Source: a phage. Taken from it: DNA of 64,000 nt. A program made the position numbers and the translations under genes. The stretch is taken from the sequence record PZ154896.1; one strand, 5' to 3'. Shown here in pieces: positions 9,123 to 64,000 of this stretch. A model generated the notes under the pieces. It made no database searches. It worked only from the letters and a program-made list of their open reading frames with translations, and was not told the DNA's origin. Position 1 is the stretch's first letter. Each line of letters opens with the position of its first letter.

Positions 9123-9533
9123 CTACTTTTTCTTATGTTGGATATTCCAAGGCGGGTTGAACTTTTTGATAAAAAGCGGTTCTTCAAGGTCCATTGTTGC
9201 GATGGTCATTGAACCAAGTTCGTTGGTGACTGAAAGGTCAAAACATTGGCGGGCCCAGAATTCAACCTTTTTGCCTTGCATTAAGGCATCCAAAATCATA
9301 AGTGATTTTCTTGAATCTGAAGTCTGGTCTTTTCGATTTATGGCTGTTCGATAATAGTTAATGCGTTTCTTTAAATTCTTGGTTTTACCAATATACACAA
9401 GTTCGTCATCTATAGCAATAGCGTATATGACATTTTTCTTATTAGGGACATCAACTGTTTTAATTGTTGCATCTTCTAATAGCTCCAATTCTGTATATTT
9501 AATAAAGGAATATTCGGCGGCAATATCTTTCAT
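9123..9533 (-). CDS. denA: endonuclease II (GIY-YIG-like, host DNA degradation)
   Basis: 136 aa, same length as T4 DenA; YAIAIDDELVYIGKTKNLKKRINYY motif. Confidence 0.9.
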   Translation of the reverse strand: MKDIAAEYSFIKYTELELLEDATIKTVDVPNKKNVIYAIAIDDELVYIGKTKNLKKRINYYRTAINRKDQTSDSRKSLMILDALMQGKKVEFWARQCFDLSVTNELGSMTIATMDLEEPLFIKKFNPPWNIQHKKK

Positions 9534-9559
9534 AATAAAGTGGGACCGAAGTCCCGTCC

Positions 9560-10738
9560 TTAGAAATATTTTTTGTATGAATTGATTACATTTTGGTCTA
9601 CATCATTATCAATTTGTGCGACAAGATAAGAACTGATTTCAACTTCCTGAGGAGCTGCTTGAACTAAATCAGAGTTCAGATATTCACGAATCCAAGGATA
9701 TGGATGCTTGGTCGGAGCATCAGTGATTGGGCATGGTAAACCACACTGTTTCATACGAGACACAGTCAAGTAATCAACAAAAGCACACATACTCTGCGTA
9801 TTGATACCTGGACATGTACCGTCTTTAAAGAGGTGTGCAGCCCATTCCTTCTCTTGTCTATTTACTTCCATAAAAATGTCAACTGCTTCTTGTTCACATT
9901 CTTTAGCAATTTGAACCCACTCATCACCATCAGTACCAGATTGAAGTTGACGGATAATGTACTGAGTACCCTTGAGGTGGAGTTGTTCGTCACGAGCAAT
10001 GAACTTCATAATCTTTGCATTGCCTTCCATAATTTCCATATTTTTATGGAAGTTAAAGGTACATGCAAATGATACGTAAAAACGAATAGCTTCTAAGGCG
10101 TTGATAACATGCAAACAGAGATAAAGAGACTTCATTAAATCACGCTTAGCAGCGGCTTCTTGCTTAATAGCACGTTCTAATTGAAAGTCTGCATTAATTG
10201 ACGCTTTGGCTAGTTCCGTGAATTCTTTCTGGTTTTCCCAATGACGAGTCTTGACTAGAACATCATCGTAATATTTACCTATTGATTCAGCTCGTTTCAT
10301 GATTGCTTCGTCTAATACAATTTCATCAAATACCTTAGATGGGTCTGTATAAAGATTTCGCATAATATGAGTATACGAACGAGAGTGAATAGTTTCGCTG
10401 AATGTCCATGTTGCAACCCACGTATCTAATGAAGGGTCAGAAATCAGTGCCATAAGTACCGCAGATGGGGCCCTGCCTTGGATAGAATCTAATAATGATT
10501 GATACTTAAGATTGTTTGTAAAGATGTCCTGTTGGAACTGAGGAAGCTTATTGAACTGCGCAGAGTCCAACATCAAGTTTACCTCTTCTGGGCGCCAGAA
10601 AAATGACAATTGTTTTTCGGTCAAATCTTCAAAAACTTTATGGCGTTGAATATCATAACGCGCAATACCAAGACCAGAACCAAAGAACATCGGTTCATTC
10701 AAAACATCGACTTGTTGTGTGTTAAAAACTGTACTCAT
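9560..10738 (-). CDS. nrdB: ribonucleotide reductase small subunit (aerobic class Ia)
   Basis: 392 aa contiguous ORF (no intron); di-iron/tyrosyl radical protein fold motifs. Confidence 0.92.
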   Translation of the reverse strand: MSTVFNTQQVDVLNEPMFFGSGLGIARYDIQRHKVFEDLTEKQLSFFWRPEEVNLMLDSAQFNKLPQFQQDIFTNNLKYQSLLDSIQGRAPSAVLMALISDPSLDTWVATWTFSETIHSRSYTHIMRNLYTDPSKVFDEIVLDEAIMKRAESIGKYYDDVLVKTRHWENQKEFTELAKASINADFQLERAIKQEAAAKRDLMKSLYLCLHVINALEAIRFYVSFACTFNFHKNMEIMEGNAKIMKFIARDEQLHLKGTQYIIRQLQSGTDGDEWVQIAKECEQEAVDIFMEVNRQEKEWAAHLFKDGTCPGINTQSMCAFVDYLTVSRMKQCGLPCPITDAPTKHPYPWIREYLNSDLVQAAPQEVEISSYLVAQIDNDVDQNVINSYKKYF

Positions 10739-13391: not shown

Positions 13392-15077
<1,686 letters not shown>

Positions 15078-39655: not shown

Positions 39656-40756
39656 TTACGCTGTGAAGATTTTATCCCACATCGCAACAACTGCATCTCG
39701 GTTATACTTCTTCCATACTGCTTCAGCACGTTTAACTCGAGCTTCGTATGTGTCAGTGAATTCTAATACAGCTTTTGTGTAAAGCGCAACTACTTCTTTC
39801 TTAGGAGTAGAGGAATCAATTTCTACACGCACAGTATCTGGGTCGTATTCAAATGTCGCATGAGGATAATCCTTAAAAACTAACTGGATTACAGGGACAC
39901 CTTTAGAGATGGCTTCAATAGAACTATTCTCTACTGTACCTGTGTCAGGACAAGTATTAATAAGTGCTTTAGCTGTTTTAAGACGTTCCATGATTTCACT
40001 GTGTGGGGCATCAATAATAACAGGATATTTAGATGGTGGTGCCCATTTGCTTGGACAGTATCCTACACCATTTTCGCCTAGTGCTTTAATCGCTTCAAGA
40101 GCAACATCAGTACGACGCATTTTAGTGTCATAACGTTGTGCACTAATAATCAGATCAGTCGCCGGAAGAACTTCAGGTTTCTCATTCAAACAAATAACCG
40201 GATAATCTTCGGCTTCAAACAACGGATTTGCTCGCCAATAATCATAATCAATTTTGTCAGTCAGACCTGAAGTCATATGGCAATATTTACGTTCAAATTC
40301 ACGGAAGGCTTTAGTAGGAGCATAACTCTTACCACCATTCTTATGAATTTGAATAGTCTGGTCCCAAATTTGAACAATGCCACGAGATACTGGTTCAAAT
40401 GGTGTTGCCATAAAATTCTTATGAACTTTAGAGAGACCTGCGTCTTTAATTGCCTGAACGGTTAGTTTAGTCGGTTCCATAGTAACAACAAAATCGTATT
40501 CATGGATGCCGGCTAGTTCAACAATCTTACGAGCCATAGTATAACTCATACCTAGACTGAATTTAGTCAGATGACCAACAGGATGGTGTGTAACTTTCCA
40601 GTCACCAAACGTGTCATTATCAAAGCCGATATAATCAATATCAGCACCGATGGACACAAGATATTTCAACACATTTAAATGTACTGCTTCAAGGCCACCT
40701 TGTACACGGTCAGGATTAAATGGGACTGCGCGAGATGGGATAAACATAACTTTCAT
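39656..40756 (-). CDS. GT-B fold glycosyltransferase (GT4-like)
   Basis: 366 aa; N-terminal RVQGGLEAVHLNVLKYL and C-terminal TGTVENSSIEAISKGVPVI motifs typical of retaining GT4 enzymes; sits between rIIA.1 and gene 39. Confidence 0.6.
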   Translation of the reverse strand: MKVMFIPSRAVPFNPDRVQGGLEAVHLNVLKYLVSIGADIDYIGFDNDTFGDWKVTHHPVGHLTKFSLGMSYTMARKIVELAGIHEYDFVVTMEPTKLTVQAIKDAGLSKVHKNFMATPFEPVSRGIVQIWDQTIQIHKNGGKSYAPTKAFREFERKYCHMTSGLTDKIDYDYWRANPLFEAEDYPVICLNEKPEVLPATDLIISAQRYDTKMRRTDVALEAIKALGENGVGYCPSKWAPPSKYPVIIDAPHSEIMERLKTAKALINTCPDTGTVENSSIEAISKGVPVIQLVFKDYPHATFEYDPDTVRVEIDSSTPKKEVVALYTKAVLEFTDTYEARVKRAEAVWKKYNRDAVVAMWDKIFTA

Positions 40757-51930: not shown

Positions 51931-52452
51931 TTAGTAACCATTATCCTGGCGTTCAAAGTTGTGTTGGTTTTTCAGGTAATACAGTTTGAAGATTTCTTCA
52001 GCAGAAAGTCCTAGACCTTGGAACATATTTAGAACGAAATGTAGAATATCAATCATTTCAAATTTAATTTCAAGCTGGTCTTCAGGAGACAGTTCATCGA
52101 TACGACGATTTCGATATTCAGCATGTTGTGCTTTCCAAGGCTTCCATACAGAGCTAGCGGCTTTTTCACCATTGCTCATACCACCAAGTGAAGTCAGCAG
52201 TTCACGGAATTCATCATCAATATAATCTTTCTGATTACGCAGCCAATCAACAACATCACCAGCAGTGGCCAATTCATCAGGATGTTTGTTATGTTCAGGC
52301 TTGTCATTTGCCAGACGAACCTGTAAAGATTTCTGCATATCAAGCATTACCTGCAGAGGGTCTTTATCTTCATGAATCAGAGCATTAAAATAAGCTTCTT
52401 CTGCTTTATCAACACCAGAAATAAGTTGTGAACATTCGTTAAAGTGCGCCAT
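51931..52452 (-). CDS. 56: dCTPase/dUTPase gp56
   Basis: Internal ATG (MAHFNEC...) with AAAGGA RBS, 173 aa; strong match to T4 gp56 (DPLQVMLDMQ, FRELLTSLG, SPEDQLEIKFE). Confidence 0.88.
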   Translation of the reverse strand: MAHFNECSQLISGVDKAEEAYFNALIHEDKDPLQVMLDMQKSLQVRLANDKPEHNKHPDELATAGDVVDWLRNQKDYIDDEFRELLTSLGGMSNGEKAASSVWKPWKAQHAEYRNRRIDELSPEDQLEIKFEMIDILHFVLNMFQGLGLSAEEIFKLYYLKNQHNFERQDNGY

Positions 52453-58627: not shown

Positions 58628-59792
58628 CGAAATCTTCCATTTCGTCAAGGTCGTTTTCTATATCTGCTGCAGACGGAGCATCAGAAGTTTTAACCGGAAC
58701 TTTAGTTGTTGCTTTGCAATTAATAAGGTCGTTAACAGCATCATCAACTTCTTTAATAGAAGAGATAGCACCTAGTTTATATTTAGTTTCAATTGCATCT
58801 CGGAAAGGTTTGTGTTTAAACAACGGTCCCCAGAATTCTACACAATCAGTAGCTTTAGCACGCCATGATTTTTCTTCACGAATCATTTCGCCTGTTTCTT
58901 CGTCAAGGAATTCGCGAGCATACCACCCGGCTTTAGGCTTAACTACAAAACCAATTTCAGTTGCCATTTCTAACAAGCCACTGAATGGGTCAATACCACC
59001 ATCGAAATTAACCGTGATTGGGAAAGTAGATTTTTCTTTAACGGTGCGAGATTTTTCCGCTTTCAACGTGAAGTCATAACCGGTCAATTCTGTACCTTCT
59101 TTAACCTGACGTTTAGAGATAAAAAATACCGTGTTGGCAGAATAAAGAATACCTGTACCACCACCCATAATCTCTTTAGGATACAATCCGCCGATTTCCA
59201 TTGCTGTATGGTTGATTGCAACACATGGAATATCTTTAATAGTCAGATACGGGGTCACAATGCGGAACAGAGATTTAAGTGCCTTAGCACGAGACATATC
59301 ACCTACAACTTTCTCGTTCAATGCATCTTCGGTTTCTTTCTTAGACGCAGTATTACCGATTGAATCGATAAAGATAATAACTTTATCACCGCGTTCAATC
59401 GCGTCAAGCTGATTAGTCATATCAACTTTAAGTTGTTCGACAGATTGAATCGGAGTATGAACTACACGGTCTAAATCAACACCCATTGAACGAAAATAAG
59501 ATTCTGAAGCACCAAATTCCGAATCATAGAACAAACAAATTGCATCTTTATATTTCTTCATATATGCTGCAACCATGGTCAGTCCAAACAACGTTTTAAA
59601 GTGTTTAGAAGGAGCAGCAAAAATAGTTAAGCCTGATTGCAACCCAGCATTCAGTGCACCACCTAATGCAATATTCAACATCGGAATACGAGTAGGGACT
59701 TCATCACGATTATTAAACAGCTTAGACTTGGTCAAGTCTGCAGTCATTTTAGAAGTAGAAGCTTTAATCAGACGAGATTTTAAATCAGACAT
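58620..59792 (-). CDS. uvsX: UvsX recombinase (RecA-like)
   Basis: 390 aa; RecA-like ATPase core; T4 UvsX length and position. Confidence 0.9.
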   Translation of the reverse strand: MSDLKSRLIKASTSKMTADLTKSKLFNNRDEVPTRIPMLNIALGGALNAGLQSGLTIFAAPSKHFKTLFGLTMVAAYMKKYKDAICLFYDSEFGASESYFRSMGVDLDRVVHTPIQSVEQLKVDMTNQLDAIERGDKVIIFIDSIGNTASKKETEDALNEKVVGDMSRAKALKSLFRIVTPYLTIKDIPCVAINHTAMEIGGLYPKEIMGGGTGILYSANTVFFISKRQVKEGTELTGYDFTLKAEKSRTVKEKSTFPITVNFDGGIDPFSGLLEMATEIGFVVKPKAGWYAREFLDEETGEMIREEKSWRAKATDCVEFWGPLFKHKPFRDAIETKYKLGAISSIKEVDDAVNDLINCKATTKVPVKTSDAPSAADIENDLDEMEDFDE

Positions 59793-59891
59793 TGTATTTT
59801 TCCATAGGCATCATTATATTTTACTCATGTTTAAAAGATAAGACGATTATATACTAACGGTTATACAGCATTTAAAACTTTAAACAGGCTC

Positions 59892-60440
59892 TTAACGAGC
59901 CCATTTGATAATTTCTGTAATCAAATAATTACGTTCGCTTGCATTAAATCCTATAACTTTGTTAGCGCCATCATGATTAAGTAATTGATACGTTTGGATT
60001 TCGTTATGAATTGCAAACTCTTCAAAATATGAAATGACTGTATTAAACCCGAATGAAGACAAAGTAATAAGGTCGTCTTCAAAACTTTCAGTCATTTCGT
60101 TACGTGTTAAAATAATTGTGAACACATCATGGTTTTGGCAAAGACGAACATAATCCTGTTCATAAACGTCGAGAACCGAGTCCGCATCTTGTCGAATACG
60201 TCCATAAACCCAGTTACTAATATATCCACGGTCTAGCAGATAAATCTTAGTAGGGTCTAAATAATTCAACATCGTTTCGAAACAGCCAACTTCATTTCGA
60301 GACTTAACATCGAAACGTCCATCAACTGTTCGTTTAGGGAAATCAATCTTTACATATCTTTCACTAATTTCCATTATGTCATTAATGAAAGTTGTTTTAC
60401 CAGCATTATCCGGGCCATCTACTAAAATAATTTTAGCCAT
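59892..60440 (-). CDS. thymidylate-kinase-family P-loop nucleotide kinase
   Basis: 182 aa; P-loop ILVDGPDNAGKTT and TMK DRx motif DRGYISNWVYG; GAGGA RBS; 1-nt gap after upstream gene. Confidence 0.65.
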   Translation of the reverse strand: MAKIILVDGPDNAGKTTFINDIMEISERYVKIDFPKRTVDGRFDVKSRNEVGCFETMLNYLDPTKIYLLDRGYISNWVYGRIRQDADSVLDVYEQDYVRLCQNHDVFTIILTRNEMTESFEDDLITLSSFGFNTVISYFEEFAIHNEIQTYQLLNHDGANKVIGFNASERNYLITEIIKWAR

Positions 60441-60441
60441 T

Positions 60442-61341
60442 TTATTCCTCGATTACGACATCTTCATATTTAGGTATATTATACGGCGAAGAAATTAAAG
60501 CATTAAAGTAGATGAACTCACCAAGACCTGGATGGAATACTTCTTCAGGATTTTCGAAATATTGAATCTTCGGTCGTCCTTTAAGAATTTGATAGTACTC
60601 AGTTTTAGTTGGTTTAAAAATTCGAATCAGCGCTTCTTCAGGATACTTATTTCTGTCGAAGCTATTATTTGGATCGGTTATATAAAGCGGTTGACCTAAT
60701 TGAATTGCACATTCAACCACTTGTTCAAAACGATAACACGGGTCACTAATTCGAAATGGATGAAAAATACCATCTAGATGAATAGGAGCCAAATCACCTA
60801 CAAGACGCTGCATGATGGAAGGACGTATAACTTTCTGGGTTACGATAATCTTATTACCATCGGCACCAGCGTTAACCAGCACTTCCTTTTGACGTTTATT
60901 CAACACAGTAGTTTGAAGTGAACGATTAACCGACAGCATGTCGGTTTTTAAGAATTCGTCAATATAAAAACGTGGTTTATTAGGGTCTGCAGTGATATTG
61001 AAATTGAATTCCACATCAAAAGCGCCGTCATATCCAGTGATATCTGTGATTAGAAAATCACAATCATAATAAGCAATTAATGAATCAACAACAAATTCAT
61101 TTTCAGACCAGAAATATTTACGAGTGTTATACGCGTTATCTTTATACCATAATGGAACAAACTTAAATTCCGGAAAAAGACGTTCACATTCTTTAATATC
61201 AGATGCATTACGTGGATATGTAATCACATCACCTGGATTAGCACGGTGCAAATGAAGTTGGAAGTTGCCATCCTTAAGGATAGCATACTGTCCAGTTTCA
61301 TAAGACCGCATACTCAAGATAGGTACGCGGAAAATAGCCAT
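60442..61341 (-). CDS. hypothetical protein (299 aa) in the beta-glucosyltransferase slot
   Basis: ORF track; TAATG overlap with upstream gp42-family gene; no resemblance to T4 beta-gt. Confidence 0.5.
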   Translation of the reverse strand: MAIFRVPILSMRSYETGQYAILKDGNFQLHLHRANPGDVITYPRNASDIKECERLFPEFKFVPLWYKDNAYNTRKYFWSENEFVVDSLIAYYDCDFLITDITGYDGAFDVEFNFNITADPNKPRFYIDEFLKTDMLSVNRSLQTTVLNKRQKEVLVNAGADGNKIIVTQKVIRPSIMQRLVGDLAPIHLDGIFHPFRISDPCYRFEQVVECAIQLGQPLYITDPNNSFDRNKYPEEALIRIFKPTKTEYYQILKGRPKIQYFENPEEVFHPGLGEFIYFNALISSPYNIPKYEDVVIEE

Positions 61342-62057
61342 TAGTCAAGGAATCCTTTAACATAATCAAAATCACGTTCAAACACATGGGCACTTACCAT
61401 GGTATGAGTATAATCACCAACTTCTACACCACATTCGTTAGCGATATAATGAAGTAATTTTCCTTGGAGATAAAAATCCAACTGCATAACAACAGCACAG
61501 TTCTGAGAACGCATATGACAGTGGGTATAAAGCTTACCATCACGAATATAATAAGTCACTGAGTCAGTACATGGATATTCAAGTGTTTCGTCCGAATCAA
61601 GCAAAGCCTGATCTGAACTTTCAAGAATTTGAAACACAACTCTTCGTGAATTAGGTTTCTCTTTAAGTTCTTTTAGAAGAGCTGGTAATTGGGCCGCAAT
61701 GCGAGGACCATAGAAAGTGTTGAAGTTCGCCGGCAAAACATCTGATTTTGGTTTAGAAATAAATTTAGCGACATTAGGATATGCCTTAAACGCTTCTTCT
61801 GCGTTGGTACCGCCAGAAATCATAAACTTCCAGAAGTCTTCGGCATATTCATAAGAGATGCGGTTAATACGTGGGTCGGTCATTTTGAATGTTGACGGGG
61901 TATCAACAACTACTGTCATAGACCCAATTTCATTACAACGTCCAATACGAGAATCAGTTACGAATTCCGGGTTTTCTAAAATTTCACGATTGACTGCTTT
62001 AAATGCGGTTTGAAAATCTGCGGCTTTGATATATTTCATTGTGTTATGTTTTCCCAT
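61341..62057 (-). CDS. thymidylate-synthase/dCMP-hydroxymethylase family enzyme, divergent gp42-like
   Basis: 238 aa; NSRR phosphate site, nucleophile Cys in YPCTDS, Asp in QLDFY at the pyrimidine-specifying position (cytosine-type) but RSQN where TS has RSCD and gp42 RSND; only ~30% identity to T4 gp42 by eye. Confidence 0.65.
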   Translation of the reverse strand: MGKHNTMKYIKAADFQTAFKAVNREILENPEFVTDSRIGRCNEIGSMTVVVDTPSTFKMTDPRINRISYEYAEDFWKFMISGGTNAEEAFKAYPNVAKFISKPKSDVLPANFNTFYGPRIAAQLPALLKELKEKPNSRRVVFQILESSDQALLDSDETLEYPCTDSVTYYIRDGKLYTHCHMRSQNCAVVMQLDFYLQGKLLHYIANECGVEVGDYTHTMVSAHVFERDFDYVKGFLD

Positions 62058-62075
62058 GTTTACCTCAATACAATT

Positions 62076-62101
62076 TATTATATACTCAATTCGTAAAGCT
62101 T
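62076..62101 (-). promoter_or_regulatory. MotA-type middle promoter for the gp42-like operon (MotA box AGCTTTA, -10 TATAAT)
   Basis: MotA-box core 62093-62099 (minus) 11 bp upstream of TATAAT at 62077-62082; ~20 nt before the ATG. Confidence 0.45.
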
Positions 62102-62178
62102 ATTTGAATTTCTTGATAATGTTGATATAACGTAAAGCTTCAGCATCGATACTTCCAAGAACACTATGAAGAAATGCA

Positions 62179-62340
62179 TCAGCGTAGTATTCCAATTGAA
62201 CAGGTTTCTTTAATCACTTTAGCCGCTTTAGTTTCAAACAGGCCCATCAGGGCCTTTTTAAGAATTTGTTCGTTGCTGTTAATTTTCGTAGTCAAAATCT
62301 CTTCATTAAGTTGGTGGTTAAAAGTTTTTCTAGAAATCAT
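62179..62340 (-). CDS. possible small protein (53 aa) coupled to the upstream Cys-rich enzyme
   Basis: Manual translation MISRKTFNHQLNEEILTTKINSNEQILKKALMGLFETKAAKVIKETCSIGILR; ATGA overlap with upstream stop; contains GGCCC-ugau-GGGCC hairpin that could instead be a terminator. Confidence 0.3.
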   Translation of the reverse strand: MISRKTFNHQLNEEILTTKINSNEQILKKALMGLFETKAAKVIKETCSIGILR

Positions 62341-63497
62341 TCCGGGTACCTCAAAGCGTCATCAGAGTTAGTTATATCAATAATAGATATAGAGTTTTCT
62401 GCTAACCCGTTTTTAGATAATTGACGTTTATAATATCTTTCACAATATGTACACGTCGTCCCGCAGATTTCATTAGCACAATCGAAATCTGGATGTCTGA
62501 ACCACCTTTTTTCTAAAAAGCCATCTAACAAAGAGGTTTCAATATTTACTGTATGTGAAAACTCTGTCTCATTTTCAAGAGTGAAAATGGTCTCTAAAGG
62601 CTTCCACAGTTCTAACAAATTACCTTCAAACTTTTCAGAAGCATAAGCTTCAAGAACTTTCAAAATGTAGTCTGTGCTACCTGTACGTCCTGAAACTTTG
62701 AATTGAGTGATACCAATATCATTATAAAGTTTCAAATCTTGAGGACGAACAAAACGAGTTCTCAACCAGTTAAATGGATCTGTATCACGAGCTTTAATAC
62801 AGTGCTGCATTGGATATCCATTTAAAGATTTGGCATCATCTACTGTAACATCGGTGCTATGGAAAATATAGCAAGAGTCACGATAACTACAATGTGTTGT
62901 ATACCCTTTACCAGCATTAGAACAGAACTCATTTACAAGAACTTCAAATATTATATTGTTCTTATTACAAAACTCTGCTGCACGCTTCAGGAAAGAAACT
63001 GAACGGTTCTTATGAATTCCGCAGCAGACCTTTTTGATATTATATTGGTCATGCAAGTATTTGATTTGAGTTACAGCATCGACATGTAGAATTGTTGAAA
63101 CTTCAATCTCAATGTCTTTATTGACTTCACGAACAATTTCCATAACAACAGGGTTAGCGATAGTAATACGCCATACGCCTATTGACCAAAGATACTGAAC
63201 ATAATCCTGAATAGCTTTCTTCTTCCACTCAACTAGTTCTCTTTTTGAACCAGGATTTATCGTGTTGAGTGTATAGTTAAAGCAAATACCTAATTCGTTA
63301 CAACGTTTAACGTAATCTTCTAACATCTTTTTGTCAACGTCAGGAAGCCTAAAATCAGGTCTGGCTGCTACAAAAGCCATTTCTCTTGTAGAGCCGTATA
63401 CTTCGTTTATCAAGCTATTAGGATAAGTTTTATTGAGCTCTACGATTTTATCAAGAAGAGCTAAATCAAAATTCGTTCCGATTTTAAAAGTATTCAT
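62337..63497 (-). CDS. Cys-rich TIM-barrel-like enzyme, tentatively U32 family (RlhA/TrhP/UbiU-like)
   Basis: 386 aa; blocks GTNFDLALLDKIVEL, NPVVMEIVREV..IEIEVS and HCSYRDSC resemble U32 motifs (AG.L..L.AAI, DPG.IMLVRE..P...IHLS, C-x6-C); extra C-terminal CX4CX3CX2C cluster. Confidence 0.45.
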   Translation of the reverse strand: MNTFKIGTNFDLALLDKIVELNKTYPNSLINEVYGSTREMAFVAARPDFRLPDVDKKMLEDYVKRCNELGICFNYTLNTINPGSKRELVEWKKKAIQDYVQYLWSIGVWRITIANPVVMEIVREVNKDIEIEVSTILHVDAVTQIKYLHDQYNIKKVCCGIHKNRSVSFLKRAAEFCNKNNIIFEVLVNEFCSNAGKGYTTHCSYRDSCYIFHSTDVTVDDAKSLNGYPMQHCIKARDTDPFNWLRTRFVRPQDLKLYNDIGITQFKVSGRTGSTDYILKVLEAYASEKFEGNLLELWKPLETIFTLENETEFSHTVNIETSLLDGFLEKRWFRHPDFDCANEICGTTCTYCERYYKRQLSKNGLAENSISIIDITNSDDALRYPE

Positions 63498-63552
63498 TTT
63501 TACATCTCGCGTTAATTGATGCGATGGTTTTTTGCAGGTCTTACTTAAATTA

Positions 63553-63954
63553 TTATAGATTCGGTTTATATGATTTAAATGTTTCGAATTCGCCTTTATT
63601 CATAAGAGCTTTGAATTCGTCAGGACGCATAGCTTTGTCGTCGATAATCCAATCATATACTGGTTTATGTGTTAGCAAATTATGGTACTTCAATCCAATG
63701 TTTGCCAAGTTCTGAATCAGACTTGGGAGAATGTCAATTGCTATACGACCAGGACCTACTGACTTCATACCGCGAGCAGTGTAAAGCGTTATTGTATGCC
63801 CTGCATCATACAGGGCATTAATGGCAGACACCATTTCGACGTCTGGTTTGAAGTTCACGTAATCACGATTGTTATTCCACTCTGTTATACAATCATCGAC
63901 ATCAAAACAAAGATTAAGCATGTTTTTTACACGGTGCATTAGATTCGTTCCCAT
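63553..63954 (-). CDS. HAD-superfamily phosphatase (small, capless)
   Basis: 133 aa; motif I FDVDDCIT, motif II ITLYTARG, motif III K (HKP), motif IV IIDDK. Confidence 0.6.
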   Translation of the reverse strand: MGTNLMHRVKNMLNLCFDVDDCITEWNNNRDYVNFKPDVEMVSAINALYDAGHTITLYTARGMKSVGPGRIAIDILPSLIQNLANIGLKYHNLLTHKPVYDWIIDDKAMRPDEFKALMNKGEFETFKSYKPNL

Positions 63955-64000
63955 TGATGAGTGATATCGCCACCGATTGGACGATAGGAAACACCAGTTT
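63955..64000 (-). CDS. 3' end of an upstream gene (partial, function unknown)
   Basis: Open reading frame continues on minus strand to window end. Confidence 0.3.

Follow-up and report, generated by a model that had tools for sequence, protein, structure and literature searches.

According to Lee et al. (NAR 2026, PMC13326640), the DNA of phage RB69 and of Acinetobacter phage DLP3 carries arabinose that is ether-linked straight to cytosine C5, with no methylene in between. Here we describe a 64,000-nucleotide stretch of phage DNA (sequence record PZ154896.1), referred to throughout as the window, in which the open reading frame (ORF) at 61341..62057 on the minus strand encodes a 238-aa protein of the thymidylate synthase (TS) fold. 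With very high probability, this protein is the Mosigvirus deoxycytidine monophosphate (dCMP) 5-hydroxylase, the counterpart of RB69 gp48 ("5hodCMP synthase") and of AfhB from phage HY126, which uses flavin and O2 in place of folate. The hydroxylase itself is already known, an orthologue having been characterized biochemically and structurally in 2025–2026.

When RB69 gp48 and DLP3 gp80 were expressed with their own deoxynucleoside monophosphate (dNMP) kinases, 5-hydroxydeoxycytidine (5hodC) appeared in Escherichia coli DNA (PMC13326640). The gp48 product has a mass of 243 Da, which becomes 245 Da with 18O2; it co-elutes with a 5hodC standard and elutes apart from the 5-hydroxymethyldeoxycytidine (5hmdC) made by T4 gp42. 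Purified gp48 is yellow, and flavin mononucleotide (FMN) is released from the protein (PMC13326640). As cited in that article, He et al. (Nat Chem Biol 2026) reported that the HY126 homologue contains flavin in its crystal structure and can be reconstituted in vitro with O2. In the same study as the gp48 work, the substitution D169N (in the numbering of E. coli thymidylate synthase, ThyA) was taken as diagnostic; 5hodC was also made by each of nine additional homologues that carry it, drawn from diverse viruses, and L143E was noted for gp48 (PMC13326640). The Mosigvirus enzyme is treated likewise in an independent paper (PMC13390438). For near-identical proteins, 5-hydroxy-dCMP (5hodCMP) is phosphorylated by a phage dNMP kinase and replaces C in DNA, after which the 5-hydroxyl group is arabinosylated.

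Identity of the dCMP 5-hydroxylase

The window belongs to a Mosigvirus (RB69-like) genome. A 4.2-kb region is 98–98.6% identical to Mosigvirus genomes, including those of ST0, phi25-307, JS09 and the O157 typing phages, and its gene order is that of RB69 and equally of HY126: uvsX, a kinase (gp45), gp46:47, gp48, gp49, a U32-family gene (gp50) and a haloacid dehalogenase (HAD) gene (gp51). The hydroxylase gene and the codons discussed below are as follows.

61341..62057, minus strand: dCMP 5-hydroxylase (AfhB or 5hodCMP synthase; orthologue of RB69 gp48), 238 aa, TS fold; assigned from the ORF, Pfam, sequence identity and an AlphaFold2 (AF2) model
61641..61652, minus strand: codons N136-S137-R138-R139, with the phosphate-binding Arg pair (ThyA R126/R127); from the alignment
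61569..61580, minus strand: codons E160-Y161-P162-C163, in which Glu stands in place of ThyA L143 and C163, equivalent to ThyA C146, is the nucleophile; from the alignment
61500..61511, minus strand: codons R183-S184-Q185-N186 (RSQN), with the hydroxylase-clade signature D169N at N186; from the alignment
61476..61490, minus strand: codons V190 to D194, with Val for ThyA G173 and Asp194 at ThyA N177, which selects cytosine; from the alignment

The ORF begins with ATG, preceded by a GAGG Shine-Dalgarno sequence 6 nt upstream. Its product is identical to RB69 gp48 at 235 of 238 residues (99%) and shares with it length, locus, neighbours and all signature residues (D169N, N177D, L143E and the Cys146 equivalent); the three differences (T55S, N85D and V107A relative to gp48) are conservative, and none lies in the active site. 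It is also about 97% identical over the full 238 residues to HY126 AfhB, crystallized with dCMP and flavin adenine dinucleotide (FAD), from which six substitutions separate it (PDB 9iqc/9ir2 and 9iqu). The entry titles of 9iqc and 9iqu, both released on 2025-07-16, read "Monooxygenase dependent on riboflavin with dCMP and FAD" and "phage HY126 dCMP hydroxylase-AfhB with substrate dCMP". In a fold search, the AF2 model (predicted local distance difference test score, pLDDT, 88.3) matched 9iqc with a template modeling (TM) score of 0.94. The next structural neighbours were the CMP hydroxymethylase MilA (TM 0.83, 25% identity) and ordinary TS enzymes (TM about 0.75, 18–21% identity).

Pfam Thymidylat_synt (PF00303) covers residues 122–235 of the protein with an E-value of 2.3e-15 (56.9 bits against a cutoff of 24.3). 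The resemblance to TS is not due to chance, because the Pfam score is joined by the superposition of the AF2 model on TS-fold structures. The TS equivalog models of NCBIfam scored 17–68 bits on the protein, all below their cutoffs of 108–427 bits.

Active-site residues and comparison with related enzymes

Residue equivalences were derived from an alignment of the 238-aa protein with E. coli ThyA and T4 gp42, the ThyA numbering being checked by script. R138/R139 correspond to ThyA R126/R127, E160 to L143, C163 to C146, H224 to H207 and F226 to Y209. The tetrad R183-S184-Q185-N186 stands at R166-S167-C168-D169, where T4 gp42 has RSND; V190 stands at G173 and D194 at N177, a position at which T4 gp42 also has Asp. 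The initial annotation, made from the sequence alone, had picked out an NSRR phosphate site, a PCTDS nucleophile motif and an unusual RSQN triad, and all three occur in the translation, at residues 136–139, 162–166 (P162-C163-T164-D165-S166) and 183–186, respectively. The alignment bears out its placing of an Asp at the cytosine-selecting position and its contrast of RSQN with RSCD and RSND. RSQN is moreover the published signature, since its N is D169N.

From this pattern the initial annotation had concluded that the protein acts on cytosine C5 but differs from a standard hydroxymethylase in its cofactor or chemistry, which agrees with the published experiments on the near-identical gp48 and AfhB. 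That conclusion was right in kind; it named neither the product, a hydroxyl and not a one-carbon group, nor the cofactor, flavin. The assay suggested with it, based on methylenetetrahydrofolate (CH2-THF), would have been negative, because the enzyme uses flavin and its product carries a hydroxyl. A single active-site tetrad, read from sequence alone, had nevertheless correctly foretold a cofactor switch in the TS superfamily.

Among other TS-fold enzymes, T4 gp42 resembles the hydroxylase in genomic position, fold, Arg pair, Cys nucleophile, cytosine-selecting Asp and acidic residue at position 143, and each of the two enzymes feeds a glycosylated-cytosine pathway. They differ in the tetrad and the residue at 173 (RSND and Gly in gp42, RSQN and Val here), in co-substrate (folate and a one-carbon unit against flavin and O2) and in product (5-hydroxymethyl against 5-hydroxy). 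MilA (PDB 5jnh, 5b6d), the best structural match outside AfhB, is likewise cytosine-specific and has Asp at the equivalents of L143 and N177 alike; it differs in acting on a ribonucleotide, depending on folate, keeping D169 and G173 and bearing a C-terminal extension (about 320 aa). E. coli ThyA and phage td share the fold, the phosphate-binding arginines, Cys146, R166, S167 and H207. Against these, at a structure-based identity of 18–21%, the hydroxylase shows N177D, D169N, G173V, L143E and Y209F, and it lacks about 26 C-terminal residues of ThyA.

Lying between uvsX and gene 43, the hydroxylase gene takes the place that gene 42 has in T4. BLASTP gave 25% identity to T4 gp42 over 218 aa (E-value 2e-13), so that the low identity claimed by the initial annotation holds and lies below the 60% to a characterized hydroxymethylase that it had named as the level telling against its reading. 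By sequence, the hydroxylase is no nearer to gp42 than to MilA or to ordinary TS. A search with T4 gp42 found no other homologue in the window, and among the matches listed each Mosigvirus record gave a single match, at about 25% identity and at the hydroxylase locus. The hydroxylase gene is a positional replacement of gene 42.

Conservation and family landscape

R138, R139, E160, P162, C163, R183, S184, N186, V190, D194 and H224 are invariant in 120 of 120 database homologues, down to 53% identity. For a wider view, a profile search was run against 1.84 billion representatives; 65 proteins scored at E ≤ 1e-30, and the best 150 were tabulated. An AfhB-like group of about 74 proteins among these 150 has the pattern E...C...RS-x-N-[V/T/I/L]...D, and a hydroxymethylase-like group of 40 has D...C...RS-N-D-G...D. 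D169 and G173 are kept in all 40 hydroxymethylase-like representatives, and a residue other than Gly occupies position 173 throughout the AfhB-like clade. Asp at N177 and an acidic residue at L143 are common to both cytosine-specific clades and do not discriminate between them.

The protein encoded in the window falls within the AfhB clade on every feature compared: the TS fold, Asn at D169, Asp at N177, the acidic residue at L143, the Cys nucleophile, near-identity to a characterized member, and the association with glycosyltransferase, nucleoside diphosphate (NDP)-sugar and dCTPase genes. It departs from the gp42 type in its low identity and in having N186 and V190 for D169 and G173, and from ThyA in having Asp194 instead of Asn177 and in scoring below the curated TS models.

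About 25 of the 150 representatives are AfhB-like in having Glu at L143, no Gly173 and Asp at N177, with Ser, Cys, His or Asp at position 169 (for example, P0137, P0145, P0159, P0168, P0175 and P0187). In the sequences surveyed, loss of Gly173 is a more inclusive marker of the AfhB-like clade than D169N, and the published D169N rule would miss or mis-sort these variants.

Fused domains occur in a further set of AfhB-like metagenomic representatives (P0124, P0126, P0128, P0130 and P0179): four carry a C-terminal histidine-phosphatase domain and one a MazG pyrophosphatase domain. MazG shares its fold family with the dCTPase that provides dCMP, and the fusion fits a channel from dCTP through dCMP to 5hodCMP.

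Proposed mechanism

The enzyme retains the nucleotide-binding half of the TS active site, that is, the Arg pair, the Cys nucleophile and the base-selecting Asp, and has exchanged the folate co-substrate for a loosely bound flavin plus O2. By analogy with TS, Cys163 would add to C6 of dCMP and render C5 nucleophilic. C5 would then attack a flavin C4a-hydroperoxide, itself presumably formed from reduced flavin and O2, and elimination of Cys163 would restore the aromatic ring and leave 5-hydroxy-dCMP. D169N and G173V map to the pterin-binding side of the ThyA pocket, a placement that would fit a change of co-substrate. Reduced flavin would probably come from a host flavin reductase. The hydroxylase is fed with dCMP by a dCTPase encoded in the window.

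51934..52452, minus strand: gp56 dCTPase, which clears dCTP and provides dCMP (97% identity in tblastn with RB69p028; RB69 annotation)

Several considerations weigh against the assignment and the chemistry ascribed to it. The flavin differs by source: FMN co-purifies with the protein, FAD is found in the crystal and riboflavin stands in the entry title. The activity of this particular allele is read across from orthologues, from which its sequence departs at 3 positions (gp48) and 6 positions (AfhB), none of them at signature residues. Finally, the covalent Cys–C6 step, the flavin-hydroperoxide intermediate and the source of reductant are elements that we infer.

Alternative assignments of the gene

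The gene might instead encode a divergent but otherwise ordinary dCMP hydroxymethylase of the gp42 type, converting dCMP to 5-hydroxymethyl-dCMP with CH2-THF, as a 2018 paper on RB69 assumed and as the annotation of many GenBank records has it. The location of the gene where T4 has gene 42, the Asp at ThyA N177 together with an acidic residue at L143, as in gp42 and MilA, and the label "dCMP hydroxymethylase" in several records all speak for such an enzyme. Yet true gp42 orthologues in other Tevenvirinae are 68–97% identical to T4 gp42, against just 25% here, and the D169 and G173 shared by all hydroxymethylase-like representatives are replaced by Asn and Val. The 99%-identical gp48 yields 5hodC at 243 Da and not the 257-Da hydroxymethyl product; RB69 DNA carries its arabinose on a C5–O ether that lacks the methylene; and flavin, not folate, occupies the crystal structure. 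We regard this assignment as highly improbable.

A second thymidylate synthase, converting dUMP to dTMP, is what the annotations "thyA" and "thymidylate synthase" in many records imply, and the Pfam Thymidylat_synt match agrees with them. Against it stand the Asp, not Asn, at the uracil-selecting position, the NCBIfam scores far under the TS cutoffs, the confinement of the Pfam match to residues 122–235, and the experimentally determined product, 5hodCMP. In addition, the window already holds a full-length canonical td, as the initial annotation had stated:

13392..14252, minus strand: canonical thymidylate synthase td, 286 aa, a comparator outside the modification system (full-length alignment with E. 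coli ThyA, 45% identity)

This td, located between frd and nrdA, has the motifs NDRR, PPCH and RSVD and Asn at position 177. A second TS is next to impossible in our estimation. Residues, scores and published product data lead us to reject both a second TS and a true gp42 for the ORF at 61341..62057, and the dCMP 5-hydroxylase is the assignment used below.

Orthologues of the hydroxylase are variously named thymidylate synthase, dCMP hydroxymethylase, deoxycytidylate 5-hydroxymethyltransferase or hypothetical protein in public records, and none of the annotations among the matches listed gives the experimentally shown function. For the gene itself, the value of the present assignment is one of annotation: it marks the enzyme that starts the arabinosyl-5-hydroxycytosine modification of DNA, which is a barrier to many restriction enzymes and influences sensitivity to type IV systems.

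Arabinosylation genes and other neighbours in the window

Genes for the later steps of the pathway, and a putative kinase, lie around the hydroxylase gene and elsewhere in the window.

60442..61341, minus strand: DNA arabinosyltransferase 1 (orthologue of RB69 gp46:47), an intact 299-aa ORF (PMC13326640 Table 1; RB69 synteny)
59892..60440, minus strand: putative thymidylate-kinase-like nucleotide kinase (orthologue of RB69 gp45) (synteny; PMC13326640 Table 1)
39659..40756, minus strand: DNA arabinosyltransferase 2 (orthologue of RB69 gp3) (tblastn with RB69p003, 98.6% identity; PMC13326640 Table 1)
63553..63954, minus strand: HAD-type sugar phosphatase (orthologue of RB69 gp51 and HY126 AfhF), for uridine diphosphate (UDP)-arabinose synthesis (NCBIfam; PMC13326640)

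The ATG of arabinosyltransferase 1 and the stop codon of the hydroxylase have one base in common (TAATG), which suggests that the two genes are translationally coupled. The presence of a single ORF for arabinosyltransferase 1 supports the published view that the split into gp46 and gp47 in the RB69 reference is a sequencing error. No Pfam match was obtained for the kinase at 59892..60440. The HAD protein falls into the capsule biosynthesis phosphatase subfamily of NCBIfam (E-value 4e-13), and the UDP-arabinose genes beyond it run past the end of the window. A promoter and terminator scan of 59700..64000 was uninformative, finding fewer sites than in shuffled sequence.

Between the U32 gene and the hydroxylase gene lies a slot (62058..62340, minus strand) of variable content.

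62179..62340, minus strand: small variable ORF in the RB69p049 slot, 53 aa (ORF; comparison with RB69 and HY126)

The ORF in this slot measures 79 aa in RB69, 40 aa in HY126 and 53 aa here, where an A-run is longer by one A; the lengths differ through homopolymer indels and frameshift. It may be a decaying gene, or there may be a sequencing error in one or more of the records. It has no match in Pfam or NCBIfam. In other genera the slot is filled by a chorismate mutase that is unrelated to the Mosigvirus ORF; a degenerate chorismate mutase was rejected as an explanation of the latter, with a BLASTP E-value of 6.9 against the Entb_45 enzyme and an hhalign probability of 0.2%.

The U32-family protein and a possible oxygen-independent route

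Two genes upstream of the hydroxylase gene, on the same strand, lies a gene that public records label as a peptidase or protease.

62337..63497, minus strand: U32-family protein (orthologue of RB69 gp50), 386 aa, with conserved Cys clusters (Pfam Peptidase_U32; fold match)

The protein matches PF01136 with an E-value of 6.3e-11 (42.4 bits against a cutoff of 22.4), and the top PDB fold match of its AF2 model is the U32 structure 5d88, its sole PDB fold neighbour from within the family. A sequence search of the PDB gave no matches, the BLASTP match to E. coli RlhA has an E-value of 0.048 over 26 residues, and the NCBIfam UbiU model scores 19 bits. The family assignment is based on Pfam and fold, because the sequence matches to RlhA, UbiU and the PDB are weak or lacking.

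Characterized U32 proteins contain Fe–S clusters and have been implicated in O2-independent, prephenate-dependent hydroxylation, in which prephenate is the oxygen donor: UbiU/V, TrhP (ho5U) and RlhA (5-hydroxycytidine in rRNA). With more doubt than confidence, we propose that the TS-fold hydroxylase is only the aerobic arm of the pathway and that the adjacent U32 protein, a putative Fe–S protein, is a prephenate-dependent, O2-independent pyrimidine C5 hydroxylase giving 5-hydroxycytosine. The same joint proposal, tentative as a whole, has the U32 protein acting as the sole base-modifying enzyme in lineages in which no TS homologue lies nearby. It extends the assignment of the hydroxylase and does not replace it. 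Paired systems of this kind are known in UbiI/H/F against UbiU/V and in TrhO against TrhP. Here too an O2-dependent hydroxylase and a U32 protein are encoded together; the O2-dependent partner is also flavin-dependent in the ubiquinone case, and a chorismate mutase is present in many phage relatives. In the known two-route systems the U32 members carry out prephenate-dependent, O2-independent hydroxylation. No published proposal of a phage U32 protein as such a hydroxylase was found in the literature covered, which included neither He et al. (Nat Chem Biol 2026) nor Mahler et al. (Cell Host Microbe 2025).

Part of the evidence for the proposal is genomic. An AroQ chorismate mutase of 75–79 aa is encoded between the U32 and hydroxylase genes in 51 phage records from at least 10 genera. 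It scores 40.9 bits against Pfam CM_2 and keeps the residues matching R11', R28, K39, E52, S84 and Q88 of E. coli chorismate mutase, which we take to be catalytic. In the Mosigviruses, including this window, the slot lacks a chorismate mutase, which argues against the proposal; prephenate could come from host PheA and TyrA. Homologues of the U32 protein at about 50% identity adjoin dCMP deaminase, thymidylate kinase, MazG or dNK/NT5C genes in phage contigs, and in another such context a TAGT DNA glycosyltransferase and a UDP-galactopyranose mutase. A hidden Markov model (HMM) scan of five distant U32 loci (L015–L019) for AfhB and chorismate mutase found neither within 6–8 kb.

C158, C192, C203, C209, H213 and C233 are invariant in 120 U32 homologues, down to 48% identity, and so is a C-terminal CX4CX3CX2C motif (C340/345/349/352). 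Set against the characterized members, however, the canonical CX6CX15CX3/4C of RlhA, TrhP and UbiU is altered, with only C192 and C209 aligning with RlhA cysteines, the C-terminal four-Cys motif is an addition, and pairwise comparison with RlhA, UbiU and UbiV gave no significant similarity. Lee et al. labelled the protein "sugar or heterocycle reductase" without discussion (PMC13326640). The case for a U32 hydroxylase is drawn from sequence, fold and genomic context.

The distribution among hosts can be read on both sides. DLP3, whose host is a strict aerobe, makes tri-arabinosyl-5-hydroxycytosine and has no U32 gene, which counts in favour of the proposal; the U32 protein is dispensable for the sugar, because DLP3 makes it without one. 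Acinetobacter accounts for 57 of 346 hydroxylase-bearing records and is not among the ten host-name categories listed for 222 U32-bearing records. On the other side, the E. coli Dhakavirus JS10 has the hydroxylase without a U32 gene. RB69 encodes the anaerobic ribonucleotide reductase NrdD/NrdG in addition to dCTPase; to replicate anaerobically, it would thus depend on a source of 5hodCTP that works without O2. A glycyl-radical motif search did not find NrdD in the window, NrdD and NrdG lying elsewhere in the RB69 genome.

If the proposal is correct, the phage protein would be the first of the U32 hydroxylases to work on DNA or its precursors, and it would open a new way into the glycosylated bases. 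It would explain the O2-free replication of gut phages with fully substituted cytosine, which could go on putting 5-hydroxycytosine in place of cytosine under anaerobic conditions, and would add DNA nucleotides to the RNA and quinones on which U32 chemistry acts.

Two further arrangements were seen around distant U32 homologues. At loci L015, L017 and L020, in phage contigs with a fusion of uracil-DNA glycosylase (UDG) and PolIII-alpha, the U32 homologue is always followed by a conserved 247–254-aa protein that has no Pfam family and then by a single-stranded DNA-binding protein (SSB); the 247–254-aa protein may work together with the U32 enzyme. At L018, the U32 homologue is followed by a gene of the DAHP_synth_1 family (9145..9891), encoding a 3-deoxy-D-arabino-heptulosonate 7-phosphate (DAHP) or 3-deoxy-D-manno-octulosonate 8-phosphate (KDO8P) synthase, and by an epimerase gene; the DAHP_synth_1 gene could serve either the shikimate pathway, and with it the supply of prephenate, or sugar synthesis.

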